Both the position numbers and the translations under genes were made by a program. Under the pieces are notes generated by a model. The model did not search any database, was not told where the DNA came from, and was given only the letters and a program-made list of their open reading frames with translations. Shown one piece after another: positions 11,790 to 54,093 of a stretch of DNA of 62,863 bases; the first letter of the stretch is position 1; each line of letters begins with the position of its first letter. The stretch comes from Minisyncoccota bacterium (GTDB taxonomy: Bacteria > Patescibacteriota > Minisyncoccia > Phycocordibacterales > UBA9973), in NCBI GenBank assembly GCA_942491275.1, contig CALNZI010000008.1, positions 1-62,863 on the forward strand, read 5' to 3'.

Positions 11790-11904
11790 ATTAAAACCCA
11801 AATAGCTCTTCTCTTCAGGCACGAAAATTTTCTGCTGAAAATTTTCTCAGTGTTCGCTCCGTCGAGCTCACAAGCCCTTCAGATAAGACTATTTGGGTTT
11901 TAAT
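11790..11904 (+). repeat. Dispersed structured repeat, copy A
   Basis: Core AATTTTC-TGCT-GAAAATT ... GCTC-CGTC-GAGC within a 16-bp IR (ATTAAAACCCAAATAG / CTATTTGGGTTTTAAT). Confidence 0.92.
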
Positions 11905-11943
11905 TTATTATTAGAGGCATATTAATAGGGTGTTTTTTATAGA

Positions 11944-11973
11944 TTGACTTTCAAGAAGATATTATGGTATTAT
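11944..11973 (+). promoter_or_regulatory. Sigma70-type promoter of secE-nusG-rplK
   Basis: TTGACT at 11944, 18-nt spacer, TGG-TATTAT at 11965-11973. Confidence 0.55.
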
Positions 11974-12022
11974 CCTTCTATAAGCCCTTCGGGGTGGTTT
12001 TTAATAAGGAATAATAAATATT

Positions 12023-12208
12023 ATGGAAAAAATTACTCAATATATTAAAGAAGTTATTGCTGAATCTAAGAATGTAACTTGGCCAACTAAAAGTCAAACA
12101 ATTGCTTTTACCATTGCGGTGATGGTAGTTTCTTTGGCTGTAGCTTATTATTTAGGTTTGTTAGACTTCTTGTTTAAGCAAGGGTTAGATTCAATAATTA
12201 AACGTTAA
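12023..12208 (+). CDS. secE: Preprotein translocase subunit SecE
   Basis: EVIAESKNVTWPT plus one TM helix; precedes nusG. Confidence 0.95.
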   Translation: MEKITQYIKEVIAESKNVTWPTKSQTIAFTIAVMVVSLAVAYYLGLLDFLFKQGLDSIIKR

Positions 12209-12223
12209 TTTTAAAAAAATATT

Positions 12224-12775
12224 ATGGCAAAACAAGAACTAAAAGGAGAAAGAAATTGGTATGCAATTCACACCTATGCTGGCTATGAAAATGCTGTTTT
12301 ACGTAATTTAAAACAACGTATTGATTCATTGGCAATGAATGAAAATATTTTTGATGTGATAGTCCCAACTGAAAAGAAAATCAAAATTAAAGCAGGGAAG
12401 AGAGTTGAAGTTGAAGAAAAGATATACCCAGGTTATGTTTTAGTTGATATGATCGTTGATGATAACTCTTGGTATGTTGTTAGAAATACACCTCGGGTTA
12501 CTGGTTTCGTTGGCGCTGGGGTTAATCCTGTTCCTTTAAATAAAAAAGAAATTGATGATCTATTTAGTCGAATGAATAAAGATGATAAAAAGGATATTCA
12601 TCAGATTGATGTTGAAATGGATGAAATTGTTCTTATTGCTGATGGCCCATTTAAAGATTTAGAAGGGAAGGTTAATGATATAGATCAAGAAAGAGGTAAG
12701 GTTAAAGTTTTGGTTTCAATGTTTGGTCGTGAGACACCCGTTGAATTAGATTTTTTACAAGTAAAGAAATTATAA
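12224..12775 (+). CDS. nusG: Transcription termination/antitermination factor NusG
   Basis: WYAIHTYAGYE, YPGYVLV, VRNTPRVTGFVG and MFGRETPVELDF. Confidence 0.99.
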   Translation: MAKQELKGERNWYAIHTYAGYENAVLRNLKQRIDSLAMNENIFDVIVPTEKKIKIKAGKRVEVEEKIYPGYVLVDMIVDDNSWYVVRNTPRVTGFVGAGVNPVPLNKKEIDDLFSRMNKDDKKDIHQIDVEMDEIVLIADGPFKDLEGKVNDIDQERGKVKVLVSMFGRETPVELDFLQVKKL

Positions 12776-12841
12776 TTAATAAAGATTATTCCATGGTCGG
12801 ATTAACCGGCGCTTCTCATAGAATTAATCATAAATAATAAA

Positions 12842-13267
12842 ATGGCAGTAAAAAAAGCAACAAAAAAAGTAAAATTACAAATTCCCGCAGGGAAAGCAAC
12901 ACCAGCTCCACCGCTTGGACCAGCATTGGGTCAAGCCGGAATTAACATTGCAGAATTTTGTCAAAAGTTTAATGCAATGACACAAAAAATGGAAGGTGAG
13001 ACAGTAGGTGTTTTAATTTCAGTTTTTGAAGATCGTAGTTATGATATTAAGGTTAAAACTCCACCAGCCGCAGGCCTTATTCTAAAAGCTGTCGGAGTAG
13101 AGAAGGGTTCAGGTAAACCTAATACTTCAAAGGTTGGGAAGATAACAAAAGCTCAAGTTAAAGAAATAGCAGAAAAGAAAATGGTAGACTTGAATGCTAA
13201 GGATATAGAAGGAGCAATGAAAATTATCGAAGGAACAGCTCGCGCAGCTGGAATAACCGTAGAATAA
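12842..13267 (+). CDS. rplK: 50S ribosomal protein L11
   Basis: [17 protein letters not shown] and [13 protein letters not shown]. Confidence 0.99.
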
Positions 13268-13273
13268 TAAAAT

Positions 13274-13303
13274 AAAAAACCCTCACAATTGTGAGGGTTT
13301 TTT
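13274..13303 (+). terminator. Intrinsic terminator directly after rplK
   Basis: AAAAAACCCTCAC-AATT-GTGAGGGTTTTTT. Confidence 0.85.
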
Positions 13304-13366
13304 ATTTGTTTGACGCCTTTAAATATTTGTGGTAATGTTAAAATAAATCTAAAAAAGGAGGTAAAT

Positions 13367-14059
13367 GTGAAAAATACAATTATGGGGTATATGTTTGATG
13401 CATGGCTCAAAGTTCAAGTCTTATTACCTAAGGTAGAGAGATGGAGTAAGTATCGGATAAGAAATCCCAAATTAAGAAAACAGACAGTTTTGCATCATCA
13501 ATATTCAGTCTGTTTAGCCATCATTCCTGTTCTATTTAAATTAAAGGAATTTAATTTGTCTTTGGATACCGAACTATTAAAAGATGCTTTTATGTTGCAT
13601 GATATTCCAGAAGGGCTTTTGAAACTCAGATATGATGTCTTGTCTGATGAAAAGGAAAATTATCATGATTTGGCAGAGTATGTAGCTTTTAGAAAATGTT
13701 TTGAAGAAGTAGACCCTTTAGTTTACGAACATTTAGAAAGGTCTTTTTTACTTCAGTTTGCAAACAAAACACAAGAGGAAATTAATTTTTTCCCACCTAG
13801 AGCAGTCAGGGTTATTAGTGTATTAAAGAAAAATAATCCTATCGAGGTAGCTTTGTTTCCAGCTCTTGAAAGTTGGGAGTACCTCTTTTATGCCTATGAG
13901 GGGTATAAAGATAAAAATGACTTTGTTATTTTTAAGGAAGTTTTAAATAAACAGCTTCCGTCTTTAAGATTATACTGTAATCAAATTAATGGTTTTAGAG
14001 AGGTTGTTTTTCCTGAAGTATTAGAGAAAGAGTTAATCTCAATTTCTAAACAAAATTAA
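13367..14059 (+). CDS. HD-domain phosphohydrolase-like protein (YfbR/5'-deoxynucleotidase-like)
   Basis: H...HD..E pattern (HHQYSV; MLHDIPEG). GTG start at 13367 follows an AAGGAGG SD. Own promoter: TTGACG 13310, 17 nt, TAATGT. Confidence 0.6.
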   Translation: MKNTIMGYMFDAWLKVQVLLPKVERWSKYRIRNPKLRKQTVLHHQYSVCLAIIPVLFKLKEFNLSLDTELLKDAFMLHDIPEGLLKLRYDVLSDEKENYHDLAEYVAFRKCFEEVDPLVYEHLERSFLLQFANKTQEEINFFPPRAVRVISVLKKNNPIEVALFPALESWEYLFYAYEGYKDKNDFVIFKEVLNKQLPSLRLYCNQINGFREVVFPEVLEKELISISKQN

Positions 14060-14089
14060 AAAAGCCCCCATAATTGGGGGTATTTTTTT
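14059..14089. terminator. Bidirectional terminator between the HD gene and efp
   Basis: AAAAAGCCCCC-ATAATT-GGGGGTATTTTTT. Confidence 0.75.
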
Positions 14090-14660
14090 ATTTTACTCTT
14101 TCAACATATTCTCCTGTTTCAGTATTTACTCGAATTTTATCTCCAACATTTAAAAAGAAGGGAGCTGAGATTTTTATTCCATTCTCGAGGGTTACAACTT
14201 TTCCACCACCACTAGCAGTATTGCCCTTTATGGATGGGGGAGCTTCTTTAATAGTAAATTCCATCTTAATTGGGAGTTTTATATTAATTATTTTATCTTC
14301 ATCATCCCAAACAAGGGCTTCTACTATTTCATCAGATTTGAGAAATTTTGTTGTTTCTTTCCCAATAACATCTTCTGTTAATTGGAATCTATCAGATGGG
14401 TCTTTGGCATCACAGAACCAATATTCTCCCTTATTGGTGTACAGAAATTTTACATCTTTTTTACTGACATTAGCTTCTGCCACTTTGTCTGAAGCATGAA
14501 AAGTAGCGTTCCAAGTTCGCCCAGAGAGTAGACTTTTCAATTTTACTTGATTTTGAGGTTTCCTTTGTTGGGTTCGAGCCACATGATTGTCTAGAACTTC
14601 ACTAGGCTCATTTTGATAAATTATTATTTTTCCTTTTCTAATGTCGCTATATTCTAACAT
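14088..14660 (-). CDS. efp: Elongation factor P
   Basis: IRKGKII, PPSIKGNTASGGGK (EF-P loop) and GDKIRVNTETGEYVERV; start reassigned to ATG 14660. Confidence 0.96.
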   Translation of the reverse strand: MLEYSDIRKGKIIIYQNEPSEVLDNHVARTQQRKPQNQVKLKSLLSGRTWNATFHASDKVAEANVSKKDVKFLYTNKGEYWFCDAKDPSDRFQLTEDVIGKETTKFLKSDEIVEALVWDDEDKIINIKLPIKMEFTIKEAPPSIKGNTASGGGKVVTLENGIKISAPFFLNVGDKIRVNTETGEYVERVK

Positions 14661-14664
14661 GATT

Positions 14665-15708
14665 TTATTCAGGGTTATTTGTTTGTAATTCTCCAAATCG
14701 GTTTTTTATTTCCTTTAGAAAACCGTCGGCAACTTTTTTATTTTCTTTCAACCAGAGACGAGTAGCATCGTAACCTCTTCCCATAGAAACTTTGTTTCCA
14801 TCTTTATCTTTATATGAATAGGAAGCCCCTGATTTTTCCAGAATTTCAAGTTTCTCTCCTAGAGCGATGATTTCTCCTTCTCGAGAGATACCTTTTCCAT
14901 AGAGAATATCAAATTCAGTTTGTTTGAACGGGCTAGCTACTTTATTCTTTACAACTTTAACTCTAGTTCGGCTTCCGACAATTTCATCACCTTTTTTAAT
15001 TTGAGCAATTCGACGGATATCAAGCCTGACTGATGTGTAAAATTTAAGAGCTTTTCCTCCGGGAGTTGTTTCTGGATTACCAAACATAACACCTATCTGC
15101 ATTCTAATTTGGTTAATAAAGATAACAACAGTCTTTGAATTAGCAACGATGGCAGTCAATTTTCGAAGAGCCTGTGACATTAAACGAGCTTGTTTTCCCA
15201 TATGGGATTGACCCATATCTCCTTCAATTTCATCTCTAGGAGTTAGAGCTGCCACTGAATCAACTACTACTACATCGATTTTTCCAGAGCGAATTAAGCT
15301 TTCGGTAATTTCAAGAGCTTGTTCTCCATTGTCCGGCTGAGAGATTAATAGATCTTTGGTCTTTACTCCTAACTTTCCAGCATATACCGGATCCATTGCA
15401 TGCTCTGCATCAATGAAAGCACATATGCCACCCTTCTTTTGAGCTTCAGCAATGATGTGTAGGGCGAGAGTAGTCTTACCGGAGGATTCTGGTCCAAATA
15501 TCTCAAGAATGCGCCCTCGAGGGACACCACCTATTCCTAGAGCCATATCAAGCCCTAGAGATCCCGTTGGAATAACATCCACGTTTACTTTAGGAGTATC
15601 TCCCATTTTCATAATTGAACCTTCGCCGAATTTTGTTTGGATAGCTTTTATTGTATCTTCAATTTCTCCACCCACTGTTTTTAAGTCTTTCTTTGCTTTT
15701 TTTTGCAT
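14665..15708 (-). CDS. recA: Recombinase RecA
   Basis: [19 protein letters not shown] and [15 protein letters not shown]. Confidence 0.99.
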
Positions 15709-15723
15709 AATATAAAAATTATA

Positions 15724-15840
15724 AAAATAAATTAAAACAACTCTTCTCTTCGGGTATAAAAATTTTCTGCTGAAAATTTTCTCAGTATTCGCTCCGTCGA
15801 GCTCATAAGCCCCTCAGATAAGATTATTTTAATTTATTTT
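15724..15840 (+). repeat. Dispersed structured repeat, copy B
   Basis: Same core as copy A; flanking 17-bp IR AAAATAAATTAAAACAA / TTATTTTAATTTATTTT (one mismatch). Confidence 0.92.
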
Positions 15841-15860
15841 GAATATTTAATAAAAATAAG

Positions 15861-16256
15861 TTATTTTATAATTTCTCTTCCAAGTGCAATCGCCTCTGCA
15901 CTTTCATTTGATATGATAGTAAATTTCTTTTCTGCTGATTTTCCAAATTTGTCGCTGGCATGTAATGAAATAATAGAAAGTCCTGGTAATAGTCCAACTG
16001 TTTCTGAAAAATTACCTTGCTTGTCAATAAATATTTCACGTCCATTTAAACTTAGATGTATAGAATTTTTGGCATTGCCAAATACTTGGACAAGGGAAGA
16101 GGATTTATTCTGAGTTAGGCTTGCTTCTATTCGTACTCCTTTCATAACAAAATCCATTTTTATATAACCAAAAACACCGATAATTAAAATTAATAAAACA
16201 CAAGAAGAGAATCCTAGCCACCATTTTATTCCTTTGTTTTTAATATTCCTTATCAT
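15861..16256 (-). CDS. Hypothetical membrane-anchored protein, probable Ig-like fold
   Basis: One TM helix then a beta-rich domain (LSLNGREIFIDKQGNFSETVGLLPG). Confidence 0.7.
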   Translation of the reverse strand: MIRNIKNKGIKWWLGFSSCVLLILIIGVFGYIKMDFVMKGVRIEASLTQNKSSSLVQVFGNAKNSIHLSLNGREIFIDKQGNFSETVGLLPGLSIISLHASDKFGKSAEKKFTIISNESAEAIALGREIIK

Positions 16257-16290
16257 CTCATTTTTCCCTTACTACTTACTACTAATATAA

Positions 16291-18462
16291 TTATAACTCT
16301 TCCTCCTCAGTATTGTCCATCGGTTTTTCAAGGACATCTCGAGGTTTAGACCCATTAGCTTCACTGACGATTCCTCTTTCTTCCAGCATATCCATCAATT
16401 TAGCAGCACGGGCATAACCAATTCCCAATTTGCGTTGAAGGAAAGAGGTTGAAGCTTTCCCTGTTTCAATAACTGTCATGCGAGCATCTTCGTATAGGTC
16501 GTCGTCATTATTGTCTACATCGTCGTGGAATAGGCTACTTCCTTTTTCTATTGAACCCGTTAGTTCAATTGTTTCTGGAATTTCATCTATGTAAACTTTC
16601 TTAAGATGAGCAGTGACTTTCTTAACTTCGTCTTCTGAAATGAAGGCACTTTGGAGACGTTCTGGCTGGGACATTTCTCCACTGGCAAATAACATATCAC
16701 CGGCACCCAGAAGTTTTTCAGCTCCACCTTGATCCAAAATTGTTCGAGAGTCTATTTGAGAAGAGACCTGAAGGGCAATACGAGCTGGTACATTGGCTTT
16801 AATTAGTCCAGTAATAACATTAACACTTGGACGTTGAGTTGAAAGGATTAGATGAATACCAACGGCTCTGGACATTTGAGCAAGTCGGATAATAGAACTT
16901 TCTAGCTCTCTTGGATAGGTCTGCATGATGTCAGCTAATTCATCAATAACGATAACGATATAGGGCATTCTATCTGCTTGTTCTTCTCTGTCTTCATTAT
17001 TTTTACCATTCTTATAAATATTATTATGATATGACTCAATATCTCTAACTGATTCAGCTTCCAGTACGTCATATCTTCGATCCATCTCTTTAGCAGCCCA
17101 TTTTAGAGCTAGAATCGTTTTCTTTGCGTCAGTAATAACAGGAGTTAGAAGATGGGGAATTTTGTTATATAAAGGAAGCTCAACACGCTTTGGGTCAACT
17201 AGAATCATCTTCATATCATCTGGTCCATTTCTATACAATAGGGAAGTAATCATGGAGTGGATGGTTACTGATTTACCAGAACCCGTTGCTCCAGCTACCA
17301 GAAGATGAGGCATTTTAGCTAGATTGCCGAAGATAGCTTTGCCGGATAATCCTCTTCCCAAAGCCACCGTAAGTGGATTTGGTGCGTTCTGAAATTTGCT
17401 ATCAGAAAGCAATGTAGCTAAACCAACCGTTGATTTTACTTTGTTTGGGATTTCAATTCCCACTAGACTTTTTCCAGGAATTGGAGCCTCGATACGAATT
17501 GGATGAGCAGCTAATGCTAGAGCTAAATCATTTTGTAATCCAACAATTCTAGAAAGCTTAACTCCTTGAGCTGGCTTCAAAGCGTAACGAGTAATGGTTG
17601 GTCCGATTGTTACTTCATCCATTTCAACAGAAATTCCAAAGTTTAGAAGTGTCCTCTGGATGATATTCATATTTCCCTTTAGGTCTCCAACATTTGGTTT
17701 ACCCTTATCTTTTTCCAGTAGTGAAAGTGGGGGAGCGGCATAGTCTGTGTGAACTTTCTTTTTTCGTGAGAAAATGGAAGTTTTTTCTTCCACATCTCCT
17801 TCTTCGTAATCATCAGGAGACACCCCTTTTATTTCTTCATCTTCGCCTTCCTCTTCTTCTTCGTATTCTTCATCTTCCTCTTCACTTACTTCTTCTTCAT
17901 ATTCAACCTCATCTTTATTTCTTGAGAAGGGGAGGGAGAAGTCTCTCTTAAGAAAAGCTAAAACTTTTTGCCAGAAGGCTCCAAGATTTGGGCTTTGGTC
18001 GAATAAAATAATTAAAGAAATTATTAGAATTGTTCCTAGTAAAAGAATACTAGCGTAAACTCCAAAAAGTTTTATAAAAGGTAGGGCTACTAAACTTCCT
18101 AGGTATCCTCCCCAAACTATATTGATTGAGTGACCTGCTCCATTGACTGCAATGTCGGCTATTCCAAGTGCCGAGAGTAAAGAAATAAAACCAGTGATGC
18201 TGTGTCTACGAGCAACCTTGACTTCTCCACGACGAACAAAGGCGACTCCGGCAGCTCCAAGAACAATGGGTAGTAAATAATATCCAAAACCAAATAGTCC
18301 GCTTAGAATTGAAAAAATAAAATCACCAGCAACTCCGGCGGATTTAAATATTGTAAGTAATATAAAAAGACCTAGGACAAGAAATCCGAAGCCCCAGATA
18401 CTTTTTTTTGTTTCGTCTTTTAATGGTGTTCTTGTTGAGTTGTTCTTTTTTCTTTTTGCCAT
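16291..18462 (-). CDS. ftsK: DNA translocase FtsK/SpoIIIE
   Basis: N-terminal TM region, PHLLVAGATGSGKS, DPKRVEL, IDELAD, STQRPSV and gamma domain LQRKLGIGYARAA. Confidence 0.97.
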   Translation of the reverse strand: MAKRKKNNSTRTPLKDETKKSIWGFGFLVLGLFILLTIFKSAGVAGDFIFSILSGLFGFGYYLLPIVLGAAGVAFVRRGEVKVARRHSITGFISLLSALGIADIAVNGAGHSINIVWGGYLGSLVALPFIKLFGVYASILLLGTILIISLIILFDQSPNLGAFWQKVLAFLKRDFSLPFSRNKDEVEYEEEVSEEEDEEYEEEEEGEDEEIKGVSPDDYEEGDVEEKTSIFSRKKKVHTDYAAPPLSLLEKDKGKPNVGDLKGNMNIIQRTLLNFGISVEMDEVTIGPTITRYALKPAQGVKLSRIVGLQNDLALALAAHPIRIEAPIPGKSLVGIEIPNKVKSTVGLATLLSDSKFQNAPNPLTVALGRGLSGKAIFGNLAKMPHLLVAGATGSGKSVTIHSMITSLLYRNGPDDMKMILVDPKRVELPLYNKIPHLLTPVITDAKKTILALKWAAKEMDRRYDVLEAESVRDIESYHNNIYKNGKNNEDREEQADRMPYIVIVIDELADIMQTYPRELESSIIRLAQMSRAVGIHLILSTQRPSVNVITGLIKANVPARIALQVSSQIDSRTILDQGGAEKLLGAGDMLFASGEMSQPERLQSAFISEDEVKKVTAHLKKVYIDEIPETIELTGSIEKGSSLFHDDVDNNDDDLYEDARMTVIETGKASTSFLQRKLGIGYARAAKLMDMLEERGIVSEANGSKPRDVLEKPMDNTEEEEL

Positions 18463-18671
18463 AAATTTTCTTACTCGCCATTCTTTTTTATTTCATCCCG
18501 TTAGAAGTAGACCTCTACCCATAGTAAAAAATAAATGAATTACATGATTAAAATTAAATAAATATAAATCAAATTAAAACCCGTTTTTCGTTGTGGTCGT
18601 AGCTTCTTACGGGACTATAATTATGACCATTATATCATATTTTTTGAAAAAATATTTTTTTGAAAAACTAG

Positions 18672-18789
18672 AAAAAAATAGACAAGACATACTCGGATTC
18701 ACCACGAATATTTTCCTGCTGGAAAATTTCTCTACTCGGCCCGTCGGCCTCCGTAAGGGTTCTCTCGAGCATATCTTGTCTATTTTTTT
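18672..18789 (+). repeat. Dispersed structured repeat, copy C (divergent)
   Basis: ATTTTCC-TGCT-GGAAAAT and GGCC-CGTC-GGCC; perfect 16-bp flanking IR AAAAAAATAGACAAGA / TCTTGTCTATTTTTTT. Confidence 0.85.
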
Positions 18790-18897
18790 TGATAAGATAA
18801 GATTATTTTAATTTCCACTTGCTACTTCTTATTGGAGTATGTATAATGGACAAATCAGAGACATCTATTTTTTATTAAAGACTAACAAAAAAGACAT

Positions 18898-19722: not shown

Positions 19723-19727
19723 GGCAG

Positions 19728-19828
19728 AAAGAATAGCTCTCCTCTTCGGGCACGTAAATTTTCTGCTGAAAATTTTCTCAGTATTCGCTCCGTCGAGCTC
19801 ATAAGCCCCTCAGATGAGACTATTCTTT
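19728..19828 (+). repeat. Dispersed structured repeat, copy D
   Basis: Core nearly identical to copy B; 9-bp IR AAAGAATAG / CTATTCTTT. Confidence 0.92.
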
Positions 19829-20760
19829 TGACCTCTTTCATTTGTATTTTCCACCCCATTTTCTATCTATTTTTAGGGTTCAAAAATCACCATTTTTTGA
19901 CCCAAATTAAACCCTTAGTTATCCACACTTTTCTATATATCTATTGATTATTTATAGGCCACGGTATATAATACGTATACATATTATTATTGCTAGTGTA
20001 ATTGCACTAAATATGATAGTATATGTTGTCTGATATTATATTCATTTTTAATGGATATAAGTTGGATTGATCATTGAAAATTTAATAGCTAAAAATTATT
20101 AATACCAAATAATTTTTAGAAATATAATTTTAGTTCTTATTTTTTAAGAAGGTTTTATTTATAATTTTAACACCTTGTTTTAAAACTAGTTCTAAATTAT
20201 TTATTACTTTTCGATGGTTAGACACCGTAAAATTTTGAAGTAAAAATTTGAAATTATTTCTTCCGCTTAAAATTTTGTTTCCAATATTTGATACTCGTCC
20301 GTGATTTTTTTTGATAGAGAAAATTATTAGGAGAGAAAATATAAAAATAATTTTTTAAAAAGAAAAATAAAATTGAATTTATATTTTAATTTTTTATTTG
20401 GTATCGGCCCTGTCGACAAGGCAGATATGCTATTTGTTTTTCATTAAAATATTTTAATTTTTTTAGAAAATTTTAATGATTACATTTAGTAATGTTTATC
20501 AGTTTTTTTTCTAACTAATTTTTTCAGAATTTGGATTGTTGCTTGGCATATTTCTTTTGATAGAGAAGTAAGTAAGTCAGGAATAAAAAAAATAATGAAA
20601 TTATTATTTGGAATTTGTGTTCGTTCATATTAATCAATTAATTAATGTGAACAAAAATAATATACACACGCACATTAGTTTTTTTTGTGGATGCATCATT
20701 ATTAATAAGCATTCCATGAATTAGTCGAAATTAATTTAAAAGTGTATAGAATTATTAAAT

Positions 20761-22981: not shown

Positions 22982-23006
22982 TCTGCCAAGGACGGTCCTT
23001 GGCAGA
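22982..23006 (+). repeat. REP-like palindrome 1 (5' of RAYT)
   Basis: TCTGCCAAGGAC-G-GTCCTTGGCAGA. Confidence 0.9.
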
Positions 23007-23032: not shown

Positions 23033-23704
23033 ATGTTACGTAAAGACCCATTTATAACAGGTCAATATTACCATATTTACAATAGGGGAATAGATAAACG
23101 TCTGATATTTAACTCAAAAAGTGATTATAAAAGATTTATTATACTTTTATATTTAACTAATTCTACTGGACCAACCAATATTCGTTACATATTAAAAAGA
23201 GATCATAAAAAATTTAATGAAATATTTCAAATAAATAGAGGTGATATGGTTGTTTCTATTGGGGCTTGGTGTTTGATGCCAAATCATTTTCATATATTAG
23301 TAAGACAAGAGAGTGATGGCGGAATAACTAAATTTATGAAAAAGTTATCCACAGGGTACTCTATGTATTTCAATAAAAAATACGAACGACAAGGGTCATT
23401 ATTTGGAGGAGTATTTAAATCTAAGTTAATTGGTGAAGATGATAATTATATGAGACAACTTTTTGCTTATATTCATTTAAATCCATTAGAAACTAATTTT
23501 CCAGATTGGGAAAATAATAAAAAAGAATTAAATCAAGCTGAAGTTCAAAATTTTTTAAATTTGTATGAATATTCTAGTTATCACGATTATCTCGGGGAGG
23601 GGAGAGAACAGAAAAATATATTAAACAAAACTGCATTCCCTGATTATTTTAATAATGATTCAACATCTTTTGTCGATTTTGTAGAAAATTATTTTAAAAC
23701 ATAA
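23033..23704 (+). mobile_element. REP-associated tyrosine transposase (RAYT/TnpA-REP, HUH Y1 family)
   Basis: YYHIYNRG, WCLMPNHFHIL (HUH), AYIHLNP (catalytic Tyr) and YSSY; flanked by inverted palindromes; TGATATAAT 6 nt upstream. Confidence 0.9.
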
Positions 23705-23705
23705 T

Positions 23706-23736
23706 AAAGTTGCCAAGGACCGTCCTTGGCAACTTT
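23706..23736 (-). repeat. REP-like palindrome 2 (3' of RAYT, inverted relative to REP 1)
   Basis: AAAGTTGCCAAGGAC-C-GTCCTTGGCAACTTT. Confidence 0.9.
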
Positions 23737-28173: not shown

Positions 28174-28198
28174 TCTGCCAAGGACCGTCCTTGGCAGA
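28174..28198. repeat. REP-like palindrome 3 (8 nt after the large surface gene)
   Basis: TCTGCCAAGGAC-C-GTCCTTGGCAGA followed by TTTGAG, as for REP 1. Confidence 0.9.
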
Positions 28199-28554: not shown

Positions 28555-29043
28555 ATGCCGATTACATTAAACAAAAAGAAAGAACTTGTGGCTGGCTTGG
28601 AAAAGTCAATTAAAAGTTCAAATTCAGTTGTTTTTGTGAAGTTTGATAAGTTGTCAGTGGAAAATGCAAACGTACTTCGTCGTAAATTACAAAGCCAAGA
28701 AGTTGGCTACGTGGTTTCGAAGAAGACTCTTTTGAAAAGAGCTCTTGATTCTCAAAAGTTCGAAGGTGACCTTCCAGAAATTCCTGGACAGATTGCCATC
28801 GCCTACGGAGATGATTTAATTGCTCCGTCTCGAGAGATTTTTGATTTTGCAAAAACTCACAAAGAAAGCATTAAGATTGTTGGGGGAGTGTTTGAAGGAA
28901 AGTACATGAACGCTGAAGAAATGATGTCCATTGCTACTATTCCTCCATTACAAACTCTACGTGGAATGTTTGTCAACATTATCAATTCACCGATTCAAAG
29001 ATTTGCTGTTGTGTTAGATCAAATCGCACAGGCAAAAGCTTAG
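28555..29043 (+). CDS. rplJ: 50S ribosomal protein L10
   Basis: LRRKL...VSKKTLLKRAL and LATIPP-like IATIPPLQTLRGMFV; precedes rplL. Confidence 0.96.
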   Translation: MPITLNKKKELVAGLEKSIKSSNSVVFVKFDKLSVENANVLRRKLQSQEVGYVVSKKTLLKRALDSQKFEGDLPEIPGQIAIAYGDDLIAPSREIFDFAKTHKESIKIVGGVFEGKYMNAEEMMSIATIPPLQTLRGMFVNIINSPIQRFAVVLDQIAQAKA

Positions 29044-31145: not shown

Positions 31146-31456
31146 ACTGCCTACGATGTTAATAAATAAAAACCAGTTGAAAATGCGGAAAAAGTAAAAC
31201 TTTCTTAGTTTTCCTTTGTCCGTCATTAAGACGGATTTTTTATTTGTTAGACAAGACATTGAAGATGATATTTGAAAACTGAATGCTGTTCCAACTCACT
31301 GTTATCCTTTAATTTTTTAAGGGTCTTTTGTATCGAGTTGGAAACAGAGTGTGATAATAAAAATTATTATTAGATCGGAAGCGGTTCTGAATGATAATAA
31401 TAAAGTCTGATTCTTTATCTGGAGAGAGAAAGATGATGATGGTTTTCAAATTTCCT

Positions 31457-34955
<3,499 letters not shown>

Positions 34956-35075
34956 AGGAAATATGAAAATCATCCCAGTAGTAGAGCATAGCTCACTACG
35001 GGATCAATTATTGTCACACTTTAGCATTCAGTTTTCAGATATTATCTATCTGAGTAGTGTTCATTGAATTTTTTG

Positions 35076-35184
35076 TTCTGGTGATTCGGCAGTGGGGTCA
35101 CACCCGATTACATTCCGAACTCGGAAGTTAAGTCCATTTGCACCGATGATACTCTTTATGGGGAAAGTAGGTTATTGCCAGAAC
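35076..35184 (+). rRNA. rrf: 5S rRNA
   Basis: TTCTGGTG...CACCCGATTACATTCCGAACTCGGAAGTTAAG...GAAAGTAGG...CCAGAAC. Confidence 0.95.
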
Positions 35185-37241: not shown

Positions 37242-37288
37242 AAGAATTAAGAATTAAGAATTAAGAATTAAGAATTAAGAATTAAGAA
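37242..37288 (+). repeat. Heptamer tandem repeat (AAGAATT)6 plus a partial unit, abutting the folD ATG
   Basis: Six perfect units plus AAGAA, then ATG at 37289. Confidence 0.97.
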
Positions 37289-38125
37289 ATGAAAACACAA
37301 ATTATTGACGGAAGAAAAATTAAAGAAGAGATCTTAAAGAAAGTAAAAGAAGAAGTTTTAACTTTACCTTTTTCTCCTGTTTTTTGTGATATTTTAGTAG
37401 GGGATGATAAGGTTTCTGCTTCCTATGTTCAAATTAAGGCAAAAAATGCTGATTCTGTAGGGATTAAATTCCGAACGGCAGAATTTCCAGAATCCATAAC
37501 TACGGAAGAACTAATTGAAGAAATAGAAAATTTAAATAGAGTCCCTCATATTTGTGGAGTAATTATTCAATTACCATTACCGGATCATATCGACAGAAAA
37601 AAAGTTTTAGATGCCATTGATCCACGGATTGACGTTGATTGTTTAGGGGCAGAAACAAATAAGGAATTTTATAATAATAAAGGAGAGCTTGGATATCCAA
37701 CAGCTTTAGCTTGTTTGAAAATTATTGATTCACTTAACTTAAATTTGTCTGATAAAAAAATTGTTGTTTTAGGGCAAGGATTTCTCGTTGGTCTTCCAGT
37801 GTCTCATTTGCTCCGTTCTCGAGGATTACAGATAGAAACTATTAGTAGCAATACAGAGGGAGCAAAAGATTTAATTAAAGAAGCAGATATTATAATCTCA
37901 GGAATAGGGAAAGGAAAATTTATTACTGGAGAAATGATTAAAAAAGATGTTATTATAATTGATGCGGGGACTTCTGAGGAGAATGGTTCTGTGATAGGGG
38001 ATGTGGATTTTGAATCAGTAAATGGAATTGCATCTCAGATAACACCATCACCGGGAGGAGTTGGGCCCGTTACTGTGGCAGTACTATTGGAGAATGTTTT
38101 AAAAGTAGCTAAAAATAAAAAATAA
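37289..38125 (+). CDS. folD: Methylenetetrahydrofolate dehydrogenase/cyclohydrolase
   Basis: GVIIQLPLP, DVDCL, IDAG, GDVDF and TPSPGGVGPVT. Confidence 0.95.
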   Translation: MKTQIIDGRKIKEEILKKVKEEVLTLPFSPVFCDILVGDDKVSASYVQIKAKNADSVGIKFRTAEFPESITTEELIEEIENLNRVPHICGVIIQLPLPDHIDRKKVLDAIDPRIDVDCLGAETNKEFYNNKGELGYPTALACLKIIDSLNLNLSDKKIVVLGQGFLVGLPVSHLLRSRGLQIETISSNTEGAKDLIKEADIIISGIGKGKFITGEMIKKDVIIIDAGTSEENGSVIGDVDFESVNGIASQITPSPGGVGPVTVAVLLENVLKVAKNKK

Positions 38126-44557: not shown

Positions 44558-44559
44558 AT

Positions 44560-44584
44560 TCTGCCAAGGACGGTCCTTGGTAAG
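44560..44584 (+). repeat. REP-like palindrome 4 (2 nt after the stop of the Cys-rich gene)
   Basis: TCTGCCAAGGAC-G-GTCCTTGGTAAG, then AAACGTCCGAA (44585-44595), also found at 22950-22960 near REP 1. Confidence 0.88.
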
Positions 44585-46103: not shown

Positions 46104-46784
46104 ATGTCTCACCAAGGAAATACCTGGGAAAAGGAATATCGAAATCCCAAATTGGTAACTAAAAATGAAGGTCCTCAAGCGGATACTTTACGTTTTTTGA
46201 AGTTTCTTAAAAAAAATGAAAAATATTTAGTTGAAGAAAGGAATATTTTAGATCTTGGTTGCGGAACCGGTAGAAATTCTAATTACTTAGCTGAAAAAGG
46301 GAATAGGATTATTGGAATTGAAATTTCAAGGACAGCATTGGAAATTGCTAAGCTTCGTGATTTAAATAAAAAGGTAGATTATAGACTTGGAGATATTGGC
46401 CAACCCTATGATATTCCAGATAATTCCATAGATATTATTTTAGATGTTACTAGTTCTAATTCTTTAGATGAAAAAGGGAGGGGAGTTTACTTAAAAGAAA
46501 GCTCTAGGGCTTTAAAAGAAGGTGGGTATTTCTTTGTTCGAGCTTTGGCCAAGGATGGAAATAAAAATGTAAAAAATTTATTAAAAATGAGCCCGGGTCC
46601 CGAAAAGGACACCTATATAATTAAAGAAATTAATTTGACGGAGAGAGTTTTTTCTCGAGAAGATTTTATAAGAATATATAGTAAATATTTCAAAATTCTA
46701 AAATTAGAAAAGAAAACAAACTATGCAACTTTTAATAATCGTATTTACAAAAGAGACTATTGGTTGGCCTATCTACAAAAGTAA
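46104..46784 (+). CDS. Class I SAM-dependent methyltransferase
   Basis: ILDLGCGTGRNS, IGIEIS and GD motif. Confidence 0.9.
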   Translation: MSHQGNTWEKEYRNPKLVTKNEGPQADTLRFLKFLKKNEKYLVEERNILDLGCGTGRNSNYLAEKGNRIIGIEISRTALEIAKLRDLNKKVDYRLGDIGQPYDIPDNSIDIILDVTSSNSLDEKGRGVYLKESSRALKEGGYFFVRALAKDGNKNVKNLLKMSPGPEKDTYIIKEINLTERVFSREDFIRIYSKYFKILKLEKKTNYATFNNRIYKRDYWLAYLQK

Positions 46785-46816
46785 TAGTCCCTACAAAAAA
46801 GTGTTATAATAACTTT

Positions 46817-49085: not shown

Positions 49086-49131
49086 CTGAAATTATTGGAA
49101 AATAGCCTTAAAAATGTTATATTTTTAAGGT

Positions 49132-49842
49132 ATGAAAGATTACGAAAAGGGGTCTTTGCACCCATTAACGTTGATAATAAACCAATCTGTCTCTATATTT
49201 AAAGACCTTGGTTTTGTGGTGGAAGTTGGCCCTGAACTAGAAGATCAATGGCACAATTTTGATGCTTTAAATATACCAAAGGATCATCCAGCTCGTGATA
49301 TGCAGGATACATTTTTTATAAAAAATAAAGAAGATTTTGTTCTTCGTACTCATACTTCAAATACTCAAATTAGATTTATGGAAAATCTATCAAAATCTAG
49401 CAATAAGCCTCCGTTTGCAATTATTGTTCCTGGAAAAGTTTTTAGAAATGAAGCCACCGACTCTACTCATGAAATGCAATTCAGTCAGATTGAAGGGTTG
49501 ATGATAGGTGAAGATATTTCTGTTGCCCACATGAAAGGTGTTCTCTTGGAATTTTTCAAAAGATTTTTTGATGGAGAAAAAGTGGATATTAGGTTGCGCC
49601 CTAGTTTTTTCCCATTTGTTGAACCTGGTTTTGAAATAGATCTCAGAAGGGGAGATAAGTGGATAGAATTATTGGGAGCAGGAATGGTTCATCCTAAGGT
49701 TTTAGAAAATTGTGGAATTGATTCAGAAAAATATCAAGGATTTGCTTTTGGTATTGGAGCTGACCGTTTAATGATGATGAAGTTGGGTGTTTCCGATGTT
49801 AGATATTCTTATCAAGGAGATTTAAGACTTAATCAATTTTAA
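49132..49842 (+). CDS. pheS: Phenylalanine-tRNA ligase alpha subunit (short form)
   Basis: HNFDALN...HPARDMQDTF, LRTHTS, YFPF-like FFPFVEP and FAFGIGADR; only 236 aa. Confidence 0.95.
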   Translation: MKDYEKGSLHPLTLIINQSVSIFKDLGFVVEVGPELEDQWHNFDALNIPKDHPARDMQDTFFIKNKEDFVLRTHTSNTQIRFMENLSKSSNKPPFAIIVPGKVFRNEATDSTHEMQFSQIEGLMIGEDISVAHMKGVLLEFFKRFFDGEKVDIRLRPSFFPFVEPGFEIDLRRGDKWIELLGAGMVHPKVLENCGIDSEKYQGFAFGIGADRLMMMKLGVSDVRYSYQGDLRLNQF

Positions 49843-49845
49843 TAT

Positions 49846-51672
49846 ATGTTAATTTCATACAATTGGCTAAAATCATATGTTCCCGAACTTCCAGAAAGTG
49901 AAAAAATTTCTGATATTATTAACAATCATCTTTGTGAGATTGAAGGTATTGAAAAAAAAGAAAATGATACAGTTTTTGATTTAAATATCTTGCCGGACAG
50001 AGCCCACGATTTACTTTCTCACCAAGGTGTTGCTCGAGAGTTAGCTTCTTTGCTGGAGTTAGATTTTAAACTTCCTGAATATAAAATTCCCACAGATAAT
50101 AAATCTAATTTCAAAATAGAAATAGAGACCGATAAATGTCGTCGATATATGGGTAGAATTGTTAGGAATGTAAAGATTGGACCATCTCCAAAATGGATGG
50201 CTGATTATCTAACTGCCATTGGGCAAAGAAGTATAAATAATATTGTTGATGCAACAAATATTGTGATGTTTGATTGTGGCCAACCAATTCATGCTTTTGA
50301 TTTAAAAGAACTTTCTTCGGAGAAAATAGTAGTTAAAAATGCTGTTATGGATGAAGAATTACAATTAGTTGGATCTGAAGAGGCAATCGTTAAATTAACC
50401 GATTCAAATATGATGATTACCGATGGAAAAAAGAACCTTGCAATAGCAGGAGTTAAAGGGGGAAAGAATTCTGGAGTCTCAGAAAATACAAAGGATCTTT
50501 TAATTGAAGTGGCGAACTTTGAACCAGTTTCTGTTCGTAGAACTTCAAGAGTTTTAGGAATACAAACAGACGCAACAAAGAGATATGAAAATGATTTATC
50601 TGCAAATTTATGTGATTTTGCAATGAAAGAAATTTCATCCTTATTTTTGGACATGTTTCCTGACGCAAAGTTTGAAGAAATTATTGATGAATATCCCATA
50701 AAGAAAGAAAAGAAAGTTATTTCTTTTAGTACAGAATATGTTTCAAAAATGTTGGGTGTTGAGATTTCAGATAAAGAGATAGAAAAAATCTTAAAAAATT
50801 ATAACTTTGATTATAGCGGAAATTGGAATGTGGAAGTTCCTGATATGAGAATCGATTTAAGTGGCCCGCAGGATATGGTTGAGGAAATAGGGAGAGTCTA
50901 TGGTTATGATAAAATTCCTTCAAGATTACCAGAGGTAGATTTTCCCGGAGAGAATAATCCTATTTGGGATAAAATACAAAAAGCGAAGGTCCAGCTTATT
51001 AATGATGGATATAAGGAGATAATGACCTACACTTTTACCAATAGGGGCAAAGTTGAAGTTTTAGCCAGCGCCAGTGATAAAAATTTTCTAAGAGACAATC
51101 TTTCTGACGGGCTTAGGGAGAGTTTAAGATTAAATAAAATAAATGCACCACTTCTTGATTTTGATGAAATTAAAATTTTTGAAATAGGGACAGTGTTTTT
51201 TGAGGATAGGGAGGAAATTCATGTTTGTTTTAATGAGAAGAAAAATATTATAGAAATGACGCTAAAAGAGTTTTCGGGAAAGAAGATTTCTTCTGAAGTC
51301 TACGGATATTTTTCTGCTGAAAAATTCCTCGTGCTCGGGCCGTCGCCCTCCCAAGGTACTTCAGATGAAACTTCTTTTCCTTCAACTTTTAAACCTTGGT
51401 CTTCCTATCCATTTATTTCTCGTGATATTTCTGTTTGGGTTCCAGAAAATACTAAGCCAGAAGAGTTGTCAAAAATTTATGAAGAACTTGGAACTGATCT
51501 TCTTATTAATAAACCAAAACTTTTCGATCAATTTACTAAGGATGGAAGGACTTCCTATGCATTTCGATTGGTTTTTCAATCTCAAGAGAGAACTCTGACG
51601 GACGAGGAAATAAATAAAGTAATGGTAAAAATTGAAGAGAAAATAGCTTCTTCTGGGTGGGAAGTAAGATAA
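49846..51672 (+). CDS. pheT: Phenylalanine-tRNA ligase beta subunit (short form) with a repeat-derived in-frame insert
   Basis: MLISYNWL, PDRAHDLLSHQG.ARE, INNIVDATN, B5 RIDL...EEIGR.YGYD, B8 YPFISRDIS...SYAFRL.FQ...RTL. Confidence 0.95.
   Translation: MLISYNWLKSYVPELPESEKISDIINNHLCEIEGIEKKENDTVFDLNILPDRAHDLLSHQGVARELASLLELDFKLPEYKIPTDNKSNFKIEIETDKCRRYMGRIVRNVKIGPSPKWMADYLTAIGQRSINNIVDATNIVMFDCGQPIHAFDLKELSSEKIVVKNAVMDEELQLVGSEEAIVKLTDSNMMITDGKKNLAIAGVKGGKNSGVSENTKDLLIEVANFEPVSVRRTSRVLGIQTDATKRYENDLSANLCDFAMKEISSLFLDMFPDAKFEEIIDEYPIKKEKKVISFSTEYVSKMLGVEISDKEIEKILKNYNFDYSGNWNVEVPDMRIDLSGPQDMVEEIGRVYGYDKIPSRLPEVDFPGENNPIWDKIQKAKVQLINDGYKEIMTYTFTNRGKVEVLASASDKNFLRDNLSDGLRESLRLNKINAPLLDFDEIKIFEIGTVFFEDREEIHVCFNEKKNIIEMTLKEFSGKKISSEVYGYFSAEKFLVLGPSPSQGTSDETSFPSTFKPWSSYPFISRDISVWVPENTKPEELSKIYEELGTDLLINKPKLFDQFTKDGRTSYAFRLVFQSQERTLTDEEINKVMVKIEEKIASSGWEVR
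51279..51378 (+). repeat. Dispersed structured repeat, copy E, inside the pheT coding sequence
   Basis: ATTTTTC-TGCT-GAAAAAT and GGGC-CGTC-GCCC; IR AAAGAAGATTTCTTCTGAAGT / ACTTCAGATGAAACTTCTTT. Confidence 0.85.
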
Positions 51673-51821
51673 ATAAAAATAGTTAAATATTCATTAAATA
51701 ACCTTATTAAATAAGGTTAAAAATACTCTAAAAACACTGGTTTTTCGAGTATTTTTTTGCTATAATAGAAGAGTATCTTACCCAGTTTATGAGGGTATTT
51801 TTAAATTAATTTTTTAACAAA

Positions 51822-53969
51822 ATGGCTAAAAAAGAAGTAAAAACTAAAGTTAAAAGTAAAACAAAAAATGAATATGGTGCCGATAAGATTTCTGTTTTAG
51901 AAGGACTTGAACCAGTACGTCGTCGTCCCGGAATGTATATTGGATCCACTGGAGTTGAAGGATTACATCATTTGATTTGGGAAATTTTTGATAACTCTCG
52001 AGATGAAGCCATGGGAGGTTTTTGTGATCGCATTGAAGTGACTTTGCTTCCAGATAATGCTGTTCGAGTTGTTGATAATGGACGAGGAATTCCAGTTGGC
52101 ATCCATCCAAAGACAAAAGTTTCTGCTTTGGAAACAGTAATGACAACCCTTCATGCTGGAGGTAAGTTTGGAGGAGAAGATAGTGGGTATAAAGTTTCCG
52201 GAGGACTTCATGGAGTTGGGGCTTCCGTTGTAAATGCTCTTTCTATTTACACTAAAGCTGAGATTCACACTGAAGGCGGCAAGCACGTCCAGGAATATTC
52301 AAAAGGGAAAAGAAAGTCTGCCGTTAAAAAAGTTTCTTCATCGAAACATCATGGAACAATTATTTCTTTCCAGCCTGATGATGAAATTTTTTCTGCCAAG
52401 GAAGGGAAAGATATTAGATTTAAGTGGGAAACTATAGTAGATCATTTACGCCAGCAAGCATATTTAGTTAAGGGATTAAGAATAGATATTATTGATGCCC
52501 GAGAGTGGAGTCCTTTAGTTGAAGGAAAGGGTAAAAAAGATTTTGAAAATATTTTTTGGTTTAGAGAATTAGAATTAGAACTTCCTTCTACCACTTTCTA
52601 TTTTGAAGGAGGACTTGTTTCTTTGGTTAAATTTTATAATCAATTAGATAAACCATTACACCGAACAGTTTTTTATGTAGACAGAGAATTAGATAATGTT
52701 GGAGTCGAAGTTGCACTTCAGTATGTAGATGATATTAGCTCTGAAATAGTTCCTTTTGCGAACAATATCCATAATCCAGAAGGGGGGACTCACATAACTG
52801 GTTTTAAAATGGCTTTAACTCGTATCCTAAACACCTACGGCAAGAAGAATAATATGATTAAAGATAGCGATGGTGGTTTTACGGGAGACGATGTCCTAGA
52901 AGGGCTTATGGCAGTAGTTTCCGTTAAATTACGAGAGATTCAGTTTGAGGGACAAACAAAGGGTAAATTAGGGTCAACAGAGGCTCAGGGAGCTGTAGCA
53001 ACCGTCTTTGGAGAAGCTTTCTCAGCTTTCCTTGAAGAAAATCCAGATGAAGCTAAAGCTATAATTAATAAGTCAATTTTAGCTCTTAGGGCTCGAAAAG
53101 CAGCTAAGGCGGCGAAAGATTCAGTTCTTCGAAAGGGAGTTCTAGAGGGAATGACATTACCTGGAAAGCTAGCTGATTGTCAGGTTAAAGATGCTGAAAG
53201 TGCAGAATTGTTTATTGTGGAGGGAGATTCCGCTGGAGGTACTGCGAAGATGGGACGAGATCGAAAAACTCAAGCCATTTTACCTCTGCGAGGAAAAATT
53301 TTAAATGTTGAAAGAGCCCGTCTTGATCGAATATTAGGATCTGAACAGATAAAAAATTTAGTTATTGCCATGGGTGCTTCCATTGGAGATACTTTTGATA
53401 TTGAAAAAATGCGTTATCATAAGATAATTATTGCTACCGACGCCGATGTGGATGGAGCTCATATTGATACACTTATTTTAACTTTATTGTATCGTTATTT
53501 CCGCCCAGTGATAGAAGCTGGCTATGTTTATATTGCCCAACCCCCACTTTTCAAAATAAAGAAAGGAAAAGAAATTTTCTATGCTTACTCCGACGAAGAA
53601 AGAGATTCTATTTTAGGAGAAGACGCTGTTGCCATTGAAGATTTATTAACTGCTTCAGCTAACGAAGAAGGGGATTTTAGTTCTGAAGAAGAAACAGAAG
53701 ATGTTGATGAAAAAGAAAATACTTCTTCTAAAAAAGTAGTAAAGAAGAAAGCAAAAATTCATGTTCAGAGATATAAAGGTTTGGGGGAAATGAATGCCGA
53801 AGAATTATGGGAAACTACAATGGACCCAGAACGTCGTCTTTTGAAACAAATTGTTATAAATGATGCGGAAAAAGCCAATAAAGTTTTTGATACTTTAATG
53901 GGATCACTGGTTCCACCTCGTAAAGCTTTCATTCAATCTCACGCTAAGATGGCGAATCTAGATGTATAA
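51822..53969 (+). CDS. gyrB: DNA gyrase subunit B
   Basis: LEPVRRRPGMYIG, DNGRGIP, SGGLHGVGASVVNALS, VEGDSAGG, PLRGK, TDADVDG, RYKGLGEM; C-terminal NLDV. Confidence 0.9.
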   Translation: MAKKEVKTKVKSKTKNEYGADKISVLEGLEPVRRRPGMYIGSTGVEGLHHLIWEIFDNSRDEAMGGFCDRIEVTLLPDNAVRVVDNGRGIPVGIHPKTKVSALETVMTTLHAGGKFGGEDSGYKVSGGLHGVGASVVNALSIYTKAEIHTEGGKHVQEYSKGKRKSAVKKVSSSKHHGTIISFQPDDEIFSAKEGKDIRFKWETIVDHLRQQAYLVKGLRIDIIDAREWSPLVEGKGKKDFENIFWFRELELELPSTTFYFEGGLVSLVKFYNQLDKPLHRTVFYVDRELDNVGVEVALQYVDDISSEIVPFANNIHNPEGGTHITGFKMALTRILNTYGKKNNMIKDSDGGFTGDDVLEGLMAVVSVKLREIQFEGQTKGKLGSTEAQGAVATVFGEAFSAFLEENPDEAKAIINKSILALRARKAAKAAKDSVLRKGVLEGMTLPGKLADCQVKDAESAELFIVEGDSAGGTAKMGRDRKTQAILPLRGKILNVERARLDRILGSEQIKNLVIAMGASIGDTFDIEKMRYHKIIIATDADVDGAHIDTLILTLLYRYFRPVIEAGYVYIAQPPLFKIKKGKEIFYAYSDEERDSILGEDAVAIEDLLTASANEEGDFSSEEETEDVDEKENTSSKKVVKKKAKIHVQRYKGLGEMNAEELWETTMDPERRLLKQIVINDAEKANKVFDTLMGSLVPPRKAFIQSHAKMANLDV

Positions 53970-53974
53970 TTTAT

Positions 53975-54093
53975 AAAAAATATTAAAAATAGCTCTTCTC
54001 TAAATGCACACATAATTTTCTGCTGAAAATTTGATCTGCTCGGGCCGTCGCCCTGCGCAAGGCATCTCTTGAAGACTATTTTTAATATTTTTT
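53975..54093 (+). repeat. Dispersed structured repeat, copy F (between convergent gyrB and thrS)
   Basis: AATTTTC-TGCT-GAAAATT and GGGC-CGTC-GCCC; perfect 18-bp IR AAAAAATATTAAAAATAG / CTATTTTTAATATTTTTT. Confidence 0.92.

Follow-up and report, generated by a model that had tools for sequence, protein, structure and literature searches.

The question raised by contig CALNZI010000008.1 of a Minisyncoccota bacterium (assembly GCA_942491275.1) is what kind of element is represented by a folded repeat that occurs six times in its 62,863 nt, the stretch analysed here in full and called the window below. With 35% GC the window is AT-rich, and it contains housekeeping genes from an organism of Patescibacteria type, the PheT closest to its own being 67% identical; the repeats lie among these genes at 1-31 kb from one another and take up ~1% of the sequence. 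A preliminary description had taken the repeat for a single-stranded DNA structure moved by an HUH enzyme (of the IS200/IS605 or RAYT kind) and oriented by the replication fork, or for a polar chromosome signal. We came to a different answer, to which we give a probability of roughly 55%: that the six repeats are Patescibacteria-wide, non-autonomous, probably mobile or formerly mobile palindromic elements, selfish or exapted, which resemble the Rickettsia palindromic elements (RPE), ERIC and Correia. We favor a mobile element because of the dispersal of the copies, their subfamilies, decay products and fragments, their patchy presence at orthologous sites, their in-frame residence in genes and the lack of a linked enzyme.

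There are exactly six copies in the window (103-120 nt each, all on the plus strand), and they are where the preliminary description placed them. The pattern CTGCTG-N(10-30)-CCGTCG has six matches, all on the plus strand and all corresponding to the copies, against 0.01 expected from shuffles. We also built a covariance model from 74 family members; run unfiltered over the entire window, it likewise returned six plus-strand matches of 62-77 bits, the next-best score being 11 bits. Each copy is predicted to fold with a long outer stem at the base of a three-way junction that carries two hairpins (z-scores -3.9 to -8.2), and none of 200 shuffles folded as well. With limits refined from the folds, copy 1 (11790..11905, 66 bits; minimum free energy (MFE) -43.5 kcal/mol, z -8.2) begins 11 nt past the stop codon of a SIMPL-family gene, lies upstream of a promoter-like site for nusG and has a 16-bp outer stem (ATTAAAACCCAAATAG/CTATTTGGGTTTTAAT). 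Copy 2 (15726..15838, 67 bits, 82% identity to copy 1) lies between two minus-strand genes, at the start of recA and the end of a 131-aa open reading frame (ORF), and is thus antisense to local transcription. Copy 3 (18671..18790, 70 bits), whose outer stem is bordered by an A7 run and a T8 run, separates the divergent ftsK (minus) and a 274-aa helix-turn-helix (HTH) ORF (plus), and copy 4 (19727..19829, 62 bits) begins 5 nt past the stop codon of that ORF. Copy 5 (51276..51380, 77 bits) is in-frame within pheT (coding sequence 49846-51672), where it encodes GKKISSEVYGYFSAEKFLVLGPSPSQGTSDETSFP in the PheT linker preceding the FDX-ACB domain. Copy 6 (53976..54092, 75 bits) lies between the convergent genes gyrB (plus) and thrS (minus), its 3' arm overlapping the thrS stop codon. 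The contexts claimed beforehand (after plus-strand genes, between minus-strand genes, at divergent and convergent sites and in a coding sequence) are therefore those we find. Promoter-like sites for the next gene stand directly downstream of copies 1, 3 and 4.

Copies 1, 2 and 4 form one subfamily (A), with 80-82% identity and shared ends (AAATAGCTCTTCTCT...AGATAAGACTATTT); copy 3 belongs to a distinct subfamily, the remaining pairs share 59-69%, and outside subfamily A the ends differ and pairing runs on into unique flanks. Several subfamilies thus stand side by side in one 63-kb window, at 59-82% identity. Directly after copy 3, at 18796..18814 on the plus strand, there is the remnant of a further copy, a 19-nt fragment that equals part of the 3' arm of copy 2 (15817-15835); this sequence has two matches, with 0.01 expected by chance. 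The ORF between copies 3 and 4 was considered as a recombinase and rejected, as it gave a weak HTH match only. The window also contains near-perfect palindromes of the form A6-CCCnnnn...nnnnGGG-T6 (5595-5632, 13270-13307, 14055-14092 and 60274-60311) that resemble bidirectional intrinsic terminators. Copy 1 has an outer stem similar to these palindromes (AAAACCC...GGGTTTT), a likeness that raises the possibility of copies entering or mimicking terminator hairpins.

The unit comprises a ~55-nt conserved core and an inner arm of ~15 nt on each side. The core consists of a long hairpin, which has one bulged base and a loop of 4 nt (TGCT on the plus strand), a 4-bp hairpin (loop CGTC) and conserved unpaired joints, and the inner arms have a conserved asymmetric internal loop. 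In the window, hairpin 1 has the stems AATTTTC/GAAAATT, ATTTTCC/GGAAAAT and ATTTTTC/GAAAAAT around TGCT, and hairpin 2 the stems GCTC/GAGC, GGCC/GGCC and GGGC/GCCC around CGTC, exactly as quoted in the preliminary description. Its statement that the loops are invariant holds for these six; in the wider family the loops are strongly conserved, yet relatives vary (TACT, AGCT and CGCT in loop 1; CGAC, CAGTC and CGCC in loop 2). The two hairpins comprise 13 pairs, which across 125 copies are 98.1% paired (45-62% in partner-slid controls), and double-sided changes number 311 against 95±6 in shuffles, a level of covariation that 0 of 500 shuffles reached. The compensatory changes previously reported are real, then, but they do not prove selection on structure, because template switching in a DNA palindrome gives the same two-sided changes (PMC8794818). 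There was only one one-sided change and ~9 G-U pairs in 1616 cells, a near-absence of both that is atypical for RNA helices evolving via wobble intermediates.

The core pattern, scanned against contigs of one genome per species, gave >119 loci (L numbers below), nearly all of them Patescibacteria among the matches listed; the lineages in those matches were Nomura-, Kaiser-, Yonath-, Niyogi- and Moranbacteria, other Paceibacterota, and Saccharibacteria. The ~55-nt core is present in >100 Patescibacteria genomes from several phylum-level lineages, and the covariance model identified 125 copies in 100 of the pattern-found loci. We dismissed as chance ~10 GC-rich proteobacterial coding-sequence matches among those listed. 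As a control for specificity, 58 metagenome loci (~454 kb, AT-rich) contained one copy, in an orthologue of L031, and the other 57 loci (~450 kb) had none. In 2.9 million viral contigs there was no true match, the pattern match in viral contig L122 lying inside GC-rich coding DNA and being attributed to chance. Rfam 15 gave no match over any of the six window copies at gathering score or at E<=10, in keeping with the newness that had been proposed for the element, and at gathering score no match over class 1 or class 2 copies (defined below) in 36 further loci; a full-text literature search found no description of this repeat in bacteria of the candidate phyla radiation (CPR). Hammerhead, twister, K-turn, retron, SRP, Y-RNA and attC were weighed by eye and dropped, their defining motifs and model matches being absent. 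The repeat is apparently an undescribed, widely conserved palindromic family of the Patescibacteria.

Two architectures were seen in the family, class 1, as in the window, and class 2, which has a longer hairpin 1 (GGTCAC...GCGACC); there are also degenerate copies and copies with an exchanged hairpin. Most copies adjoin gene ends; the core has a median distance of 35 nt to the nearest stop codon, and convergent gene contexts outnumber divergent ones (15 vs 7). Presence differs among orthologous sites. L090 and L119 carry a copy at the same site in TsaD and L036 does not; after gyrB the window has copy 6, whereas the closest relative, L120, has a plain terminator hairpin alone. Subfamilies, fragments and patchy sites of this kind bear out, as probable, the earlier proposal of a mobile, non-autonomous and dispersed element. 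Locus L099 has two copies 1.2 kb apart (658-733 and 1900-1976) with a common outer stem (TCAGAAAAAGCTTCCTTCCGAGAC...), one of them possibly bounded by a 6-bp direct repeat (TTATAT); the mobile or duplicated unit may therefore sometimes include the outer stem.

In-frame copies occur in both orientations in PheT, TsaD, RecG (L041), DnaE (L039), UvrD (L015), a phosphoglucomutase-family mutase (L087) and a PrmC-like methyltransferase (L056 and L067), all with intact Pfam architectures. The PheT copies come from three loci and two further orthologues. Of 22 aligned orthologues, four have the peptide of the pheT copy, GYFSAEKFLVLxPSxSQ, at the linker occupied in the window; L110 has it too, and the closest orthologue lacks it. 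The PheTs that carry it are scattered over the PheT tree. Identical residues are encoded by identical codons at 14/15, 14/15 and 15/15 positions in the core compared with ~50% outside it; the core is thus conserved at the nucleotide level beyond protein need, with synonymous sites frozen. Unrelated genes have repeatedly taken up the repeat in-frame with their ORFs preserved, which puts it in the same functional class as RPE, a likeness for which homology is not expected. A phmmer search with the 35-aa element peptide returned 0 matches, the query being too short for the size of the library. A PheT from another Paceibacterota genome (P0080) contains a ~27-aa peptide (…LSERSSDLLANTENTLGQTVSESTS…) twice, at two sites (alignment A2 columns ~240-270 and ~575-625), which suggests that CPR genomes harbor another in-frame repeat family, unrelated to this one.

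Each copy also has its own outer stem, extending 8-40 bp beyond the inner arms (median 23 paired nt, maximum 54), unique to the copy and often perfect; L080, L012, L047 and L055, for example, have perfect outer stems of 26-39 bp. In two coding cases (L121 pheT and L119 tsaD), the arm that is upstream in the direction of the gene is made up of conserved codons native to the gene, and the downstream arm is an insertion that copies it in inverted orientation. Among mismatches lying more than 21 nt from the core, neither strand is favored (A·C 8 and G·T 12), which is the behavior expected of DNA palindromes not under selection, and so the outermost stems appear to be free of strand-specific selection. 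Template switching is known to create and maintain hairpins (PMC8794818), and quasipalindrome or template-switch mutagenesis yields perfect stems, one-step double changes and flanks copied into the opposite arm (PMC8794818, PMC5453318) as seen here; unlike our repeat, it is a mutational process rather than an element family, and it accounts for the outer stems but not for the conserved core or its spread. We infer from the two coding cases and the symmetric decay of the outermost pairs that the unique outer stems arose by snap-back template switching. Under our preferred reading as a mobile or formerly mobile element, the repeat would spread by a trans-acting factor that recognizes the folded core. 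At or after insertion, intramolecular template switching (snap-back) in replication would extend the palindrome and maintain its perfect pairing, copying the upstream flank into the downstream arm and giving one-step 'compensatory' changes. Once transcribed, the long hairpin may act as a 3'-end, terminator or RNase III-type structure, and action at RNA 3' ends would explain the proximity to stop codons and the sense bias described next.

The uniform orientation of the six copies, for which a chance of 1/32 had been given, is real within the window, but the figure is weak and the polarity is not shared by the family. Adjacent copies within 8-kb loci of other genomes are parallel in 13 cases and antiparallel in 10-11 (class 1-class 1 neighbors outside the window 7 vs 3; mixed class 1/class 2 pairs 1 vs 5). 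Cumulative GC skew in the window rises monotonically, with plus as the G-rich strand, and the window therefore represents one replichore. Across loci the GC skew and the pattern strand agree in 56 cases and disagree in 17; we rejected the skew as an orientation test, as skew here mainly tracks the coding strand and is not independent of the genes. With non-adjacent (regional) gene orientation as a proxy for replication, agreement was 43 to 29. In tandem gene contexts the class 1 pattern strand is sense to both neighbors 27 times and antisense 8 times. Since the neighbor counts are near parity and agreement with the replication proxy is limited, the strict polarity is local to the window and not a family property, and orientation tracks local transcription more than replication. 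Neither the proposed tie to fork direction nor the proposed independence from transcription survives this comparison, and orientation following transcription is an outcome that the preliminary description had itself named as refuting its claim.

The same counts bear on the idea of a single-stranded DNA element moved by an HUH enzyme and oriented by the fork, or a polar chromosome signal. In its favor, the six copies lie on the G-rich strand, which has the leading-strand sequence in a window of monotonic cumulative skew, class 1-class 1 neighbors elsewhere lean to the parallel arrangement (7 to 3), the strictly Watson-Crick stems suit DNA, and the window encodes a RAYT-like Y1 transposase ORF (23033-23704; Pfam Y1_Tnp 40.7 bits; NCBIfam REP_Tyr_transpos 38.7 bits, below cut-off). 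That ORF, however, is bracketed not by the six-copy repeat but by inverted copies of an unrelated 21-nt perfect palindrome, TGCCAAGGAC[G/C]GTCCTTGGCA (22984-23004 and 23711-23731), in the classical REP-RAYT layout. Two more copies of this palindrome are at 28176-28196 and 44562-44582, and together with the ORF they make a candidate REP-RAYT system in a CPR genome. When 797 ORFs from ~110 loci were compared all against all by BLAST, no family occurred in more than six loci (the top being ThrRS, with six), and no transposase (Y1 included), integrase or reverse transcriptase family was enriched near copies. The flanks of the six copies have no shared motif and no conserved 4-5-nt target. Moreover, neighbors overall are 13 parallel to 10-11 antiparallel, the 43 to 29 of the replication proxy is weaker than the 27 to 8 of adjacent genes, and the better-folding strand is the complement and not the lagging-strand template in the window. 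We therefore find no link to an HUH or RAYT enzyme and hold this model to be very unlikely.

Nor does the strand presumed active fare well, for the asymmetric non-Watson-Crick features point, if anywhere, to the complement. On the plus (pattern) strand the internal loop of the inner arms is a tandem T·C/C·T next to an A·C; on the complement it becomes a tandem G·A with a G·U, and the bulge in hairpin 1 becomes a bulged A. By MFE the complement folds better in 48/72 class 1 and 37/39 class 2 copies, the class 2 comparison being confounded by flanking tRNAs. The indicators of strand thus conflict, gene orientation pointing to the plus (pattern) strand and mismatch chemistry and MFE to the complement. 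An assignment from G-U counts in P2/P3 was dropped, as there were too few wobbles (~9 G·U vs 4 A·C).

The sense bias also bears on a host-selected cis-acting RNA, that is, a terminator, mRNA stabilizer or RNase processing site in 3' untranslated or intergenic regions, bound by a conserved Patescibacteria protein and present in many copies because it is useful rather than mobile. Such a role fits the phylum-level conservation of the core and its frozen synonymous sites, the nearness to stop codons, the excess of convergent over divergent sites and the 27 to 8 sense bias, and also the promoter-like sites of next genes just past copies 1, 3 and 4, the conserved unpaired joints, bulged base and asymmetric internal loop, and the occurrence of class 2 in tRNA, 5S and RNase P neighborhoods. 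It fits poorly with in-frame copies in seven unrelated essential genes in both orientations, with degenerate copies, fragments and patchy presence at orthologous sites, with stems that vary heavily but nearly lack G-U or one-sided changes, with tandem G·A plus G·U pairs that read on a strand mostly antisense to flanking genes, and with copy 2, which is antisense to all local transcription. We regard a cis-acting RNA as a tentative possibility, one that overlaps the mobile-element reading as its exapted state.

Several of these results weigh against the mobile-element reading itself. A core conserved across phylum-level lineages, with frozen synonymous sites, is odd for decaying selfish DNA and suits a host-level function at least as well, and the 27 to 8 bias in gene orientation needs selection or a directed mechanism. 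The same site being occupied in distant PheT, TsaD and PrmC-like orthologues requires either an ancient insertion that was strongly maintained or site-specific homing. No filled-versus-empty pair in close strains was found with a 29-nt dnaK anchor from L031 (58 metagenome loci, one from the same organism and identical), no target-site duplication was found at class 1 copies, where the flanks are inverted and not direct repeats, and no autonomous parent element or parent IS was found among the neighbors in the ~110 loci.

Class 2 copies occupy the neighborhoods of stable-RNA genes. About one-third are 20-150 nt downstream of a tRNA gene, and some adjoin 5S or RNase P RNA genes. This setting is relevant to the idea that the copies are paralogous genes for a trans-acting small RNA, transcribed from the complement of the strand in the preliminary description. 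The complement does fold better (48/72 and 37/39), it shows the tandem G·A plus G·U and the bulged A, and the tRNA-linked third of class 2 is co-directional with the tRNA genes on the complement. Small RNA genes would not be expected, however, as six copies in 63 kb, within coding sequences, with unique outer stems or as decayed copies and fragments; promoter-like sites were not enriched (33 vs 32.5 in shuffles), and the class 2 folding comparison is confounded by the flanking tRNAs. We consider small RNA paralogues highly improbable.

In four loci (L045, L097, L098 and L107) the sequence after the class 2 copy exactly repeats, in direct orientation, 19 nt of the tRNA, from position 56 (in the T-loop) to the 3' end, and a short inverted copy of this 19-nt repeat forms the closing stem. 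These tRNA-linked repeats may be the signature of an att-like site or of a target duplication, or else a device for alternative pairing. Class 2 relatives downstream of tRNA genes were also seen in L014, L044, L062 and L077, some with a hairpin formed by the last tRNA bases and the trailer. One could go further and suppose an active, structure-guided mobile element of undescribed insertion chemistry, which would enter hairpin loops or gene 3' ends, including the segment of tRNAs from the T-loop to the 3' end, and would build its outer stem by inverted copying of the flank at insertion, the three-way junction of the core being recognized by a factor conserved across Patescibacteria. We think this stronger proposal unlikely.

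Returning to the reading that we prefer, of mobile or formerly mobile palindromic elements, we compared the repeat with known kinds, of which RPE, ERIC and Correia have been reviewed together (PMC10969869). Like the repeat, RPE are palindromes of ~100-150 bp dispersed in intergenic copies in a reduced genome, they have repeatedly entered unrelated housekeeping genes in-frame, leaving a conserved peptide at a tolerated position, and they have no known linked transposase (PMC10969869). They differ in belonging to another host clade, so that the likeness is one of functional class and sequence homology is not expected. They differ also in being confined to one genus, whereas the ~55-nt core here spans phylum-level lineages, and the repeat has two covarying hairpins in a three-way junction and a unique flank-derived outer stem in each copy. 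ERIC (or IRU) and Correia (NEMIS) are likewise imperfect palindromes of ~100-150 bp, mostly at gene ends; they are transcribed as long hairpins and cut by RNase III or RNase E, which alters the fate of the mRNA, and ERIC is conserved across genera and occasionally lies within genes (PMC10969869). Unlike ERIC and Correia, our repeat has its conserved part at the hairpin apex and not at the termini, and unlike Correia, with its defined terminal inverted repeats and TA target duplication, it shows no duplication. A classical MITE would have conserved terminal inverted repeats; here the ends are shared within subfamily A, the other subfamilies differ, and pairing continues into unique flanks.

REP/BIME sequences, thought to be mobilized as folded single strands, share with our repeat the form of short, multi-copy extragenic palindromes at gene ends. 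The repeat is 3-5x longer than REP, has a branched apex and enters coding sequences, and the RAYT-like gene in the window is flanked by a different palindrome, of 21 nt. The ends of IS200/IS605 and the ORF-less PATEs are similar in their structure-based recognition, subterminal hairpins and lack of target duplication; unlike IS200/IS605, the repeat has no conserved target tetra- or pentanucleotide, no strict polarity and no associated TnpA/TnpB near copies. Integron attC sites also keep a structure while the stem sequence varies, have extrahelical or mismatched bases and fold strand-specifically. In contrast to attC, the ends of the six copies have no RYYYAAC/GTTRRRY boxes, a cassette array and an integrase are both absent, conservation is at the apex and not at the base of the stem, and copies lie inside genes. 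Relative to these known kinds, the family is unusual in a branched apex conserved across phylum-level lineages, in nucleotide constraint within coding sequences and in a unique flank-derived stem.

Some other features of the window stand apart from the repeat. The 23S rRNA gene (31456-34958) is 3503 nt long compared with a 2925-position model and has several insertions. One of these (34329-34619) matches the group I intron model at 39 bits (E 1.9e-6), short of the gathering score of 50, and lacks any ORF of >=80 aa. A 5S gene (35077-35183) follows the 23S gene, and a 16S gene was not detected in the window. Immediately upstream of thrS (54092-55858, minus), the region 55922-56098 (minus) may be a divergent T-box riboswitch, as it matches the T-box leader model below threshold (27.6 bits, E 0.033; gathering score 93). 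Upstream of the ORF at 28555-29043, the segment 28421-28547 (plus) matches a ribosomal protein L10 leader, again just below threshold (38.5 vs 44 bits). There are Pro/Glu/Thr-rich coding repeats at 1712-2195 (within ORF 1340-2188), with 16 overlapping 49-nt units and 106-nt higher-order repeats, and a 14-nt tandem repeat (AAGAATTAAGAATT, ~4 copies) at 37242-37295 in the short spacer of two plus-strand genes.

A large part of bacterial diversity belongs to the Patescibacteria, whose ~1-Mb genomes contain hardly any spare DNA. In such organisms it is notable to find a repeat that takes up ~1% of the window, is conserved at the level of phyla and lies inside the essential genes for PheT, DnaE, RecG, TsaD and UvrD. 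This repeat would be either a genomic parasite of great success or a common signal for regulation or processing that current RNA catalogues miss. The covariance model may serve as an annotation model for CPR genomes and the repeat as a marker for binning CPR contigs, and the in-frame copies would account for odd insertions in CPR proteins. The family is also a natural test case for replication template switching that produces 'covariation' without RNA selection. As the family occurs in Saccharibacteria, which can be grown together with a host, the questions raised here can be approached by experiment.

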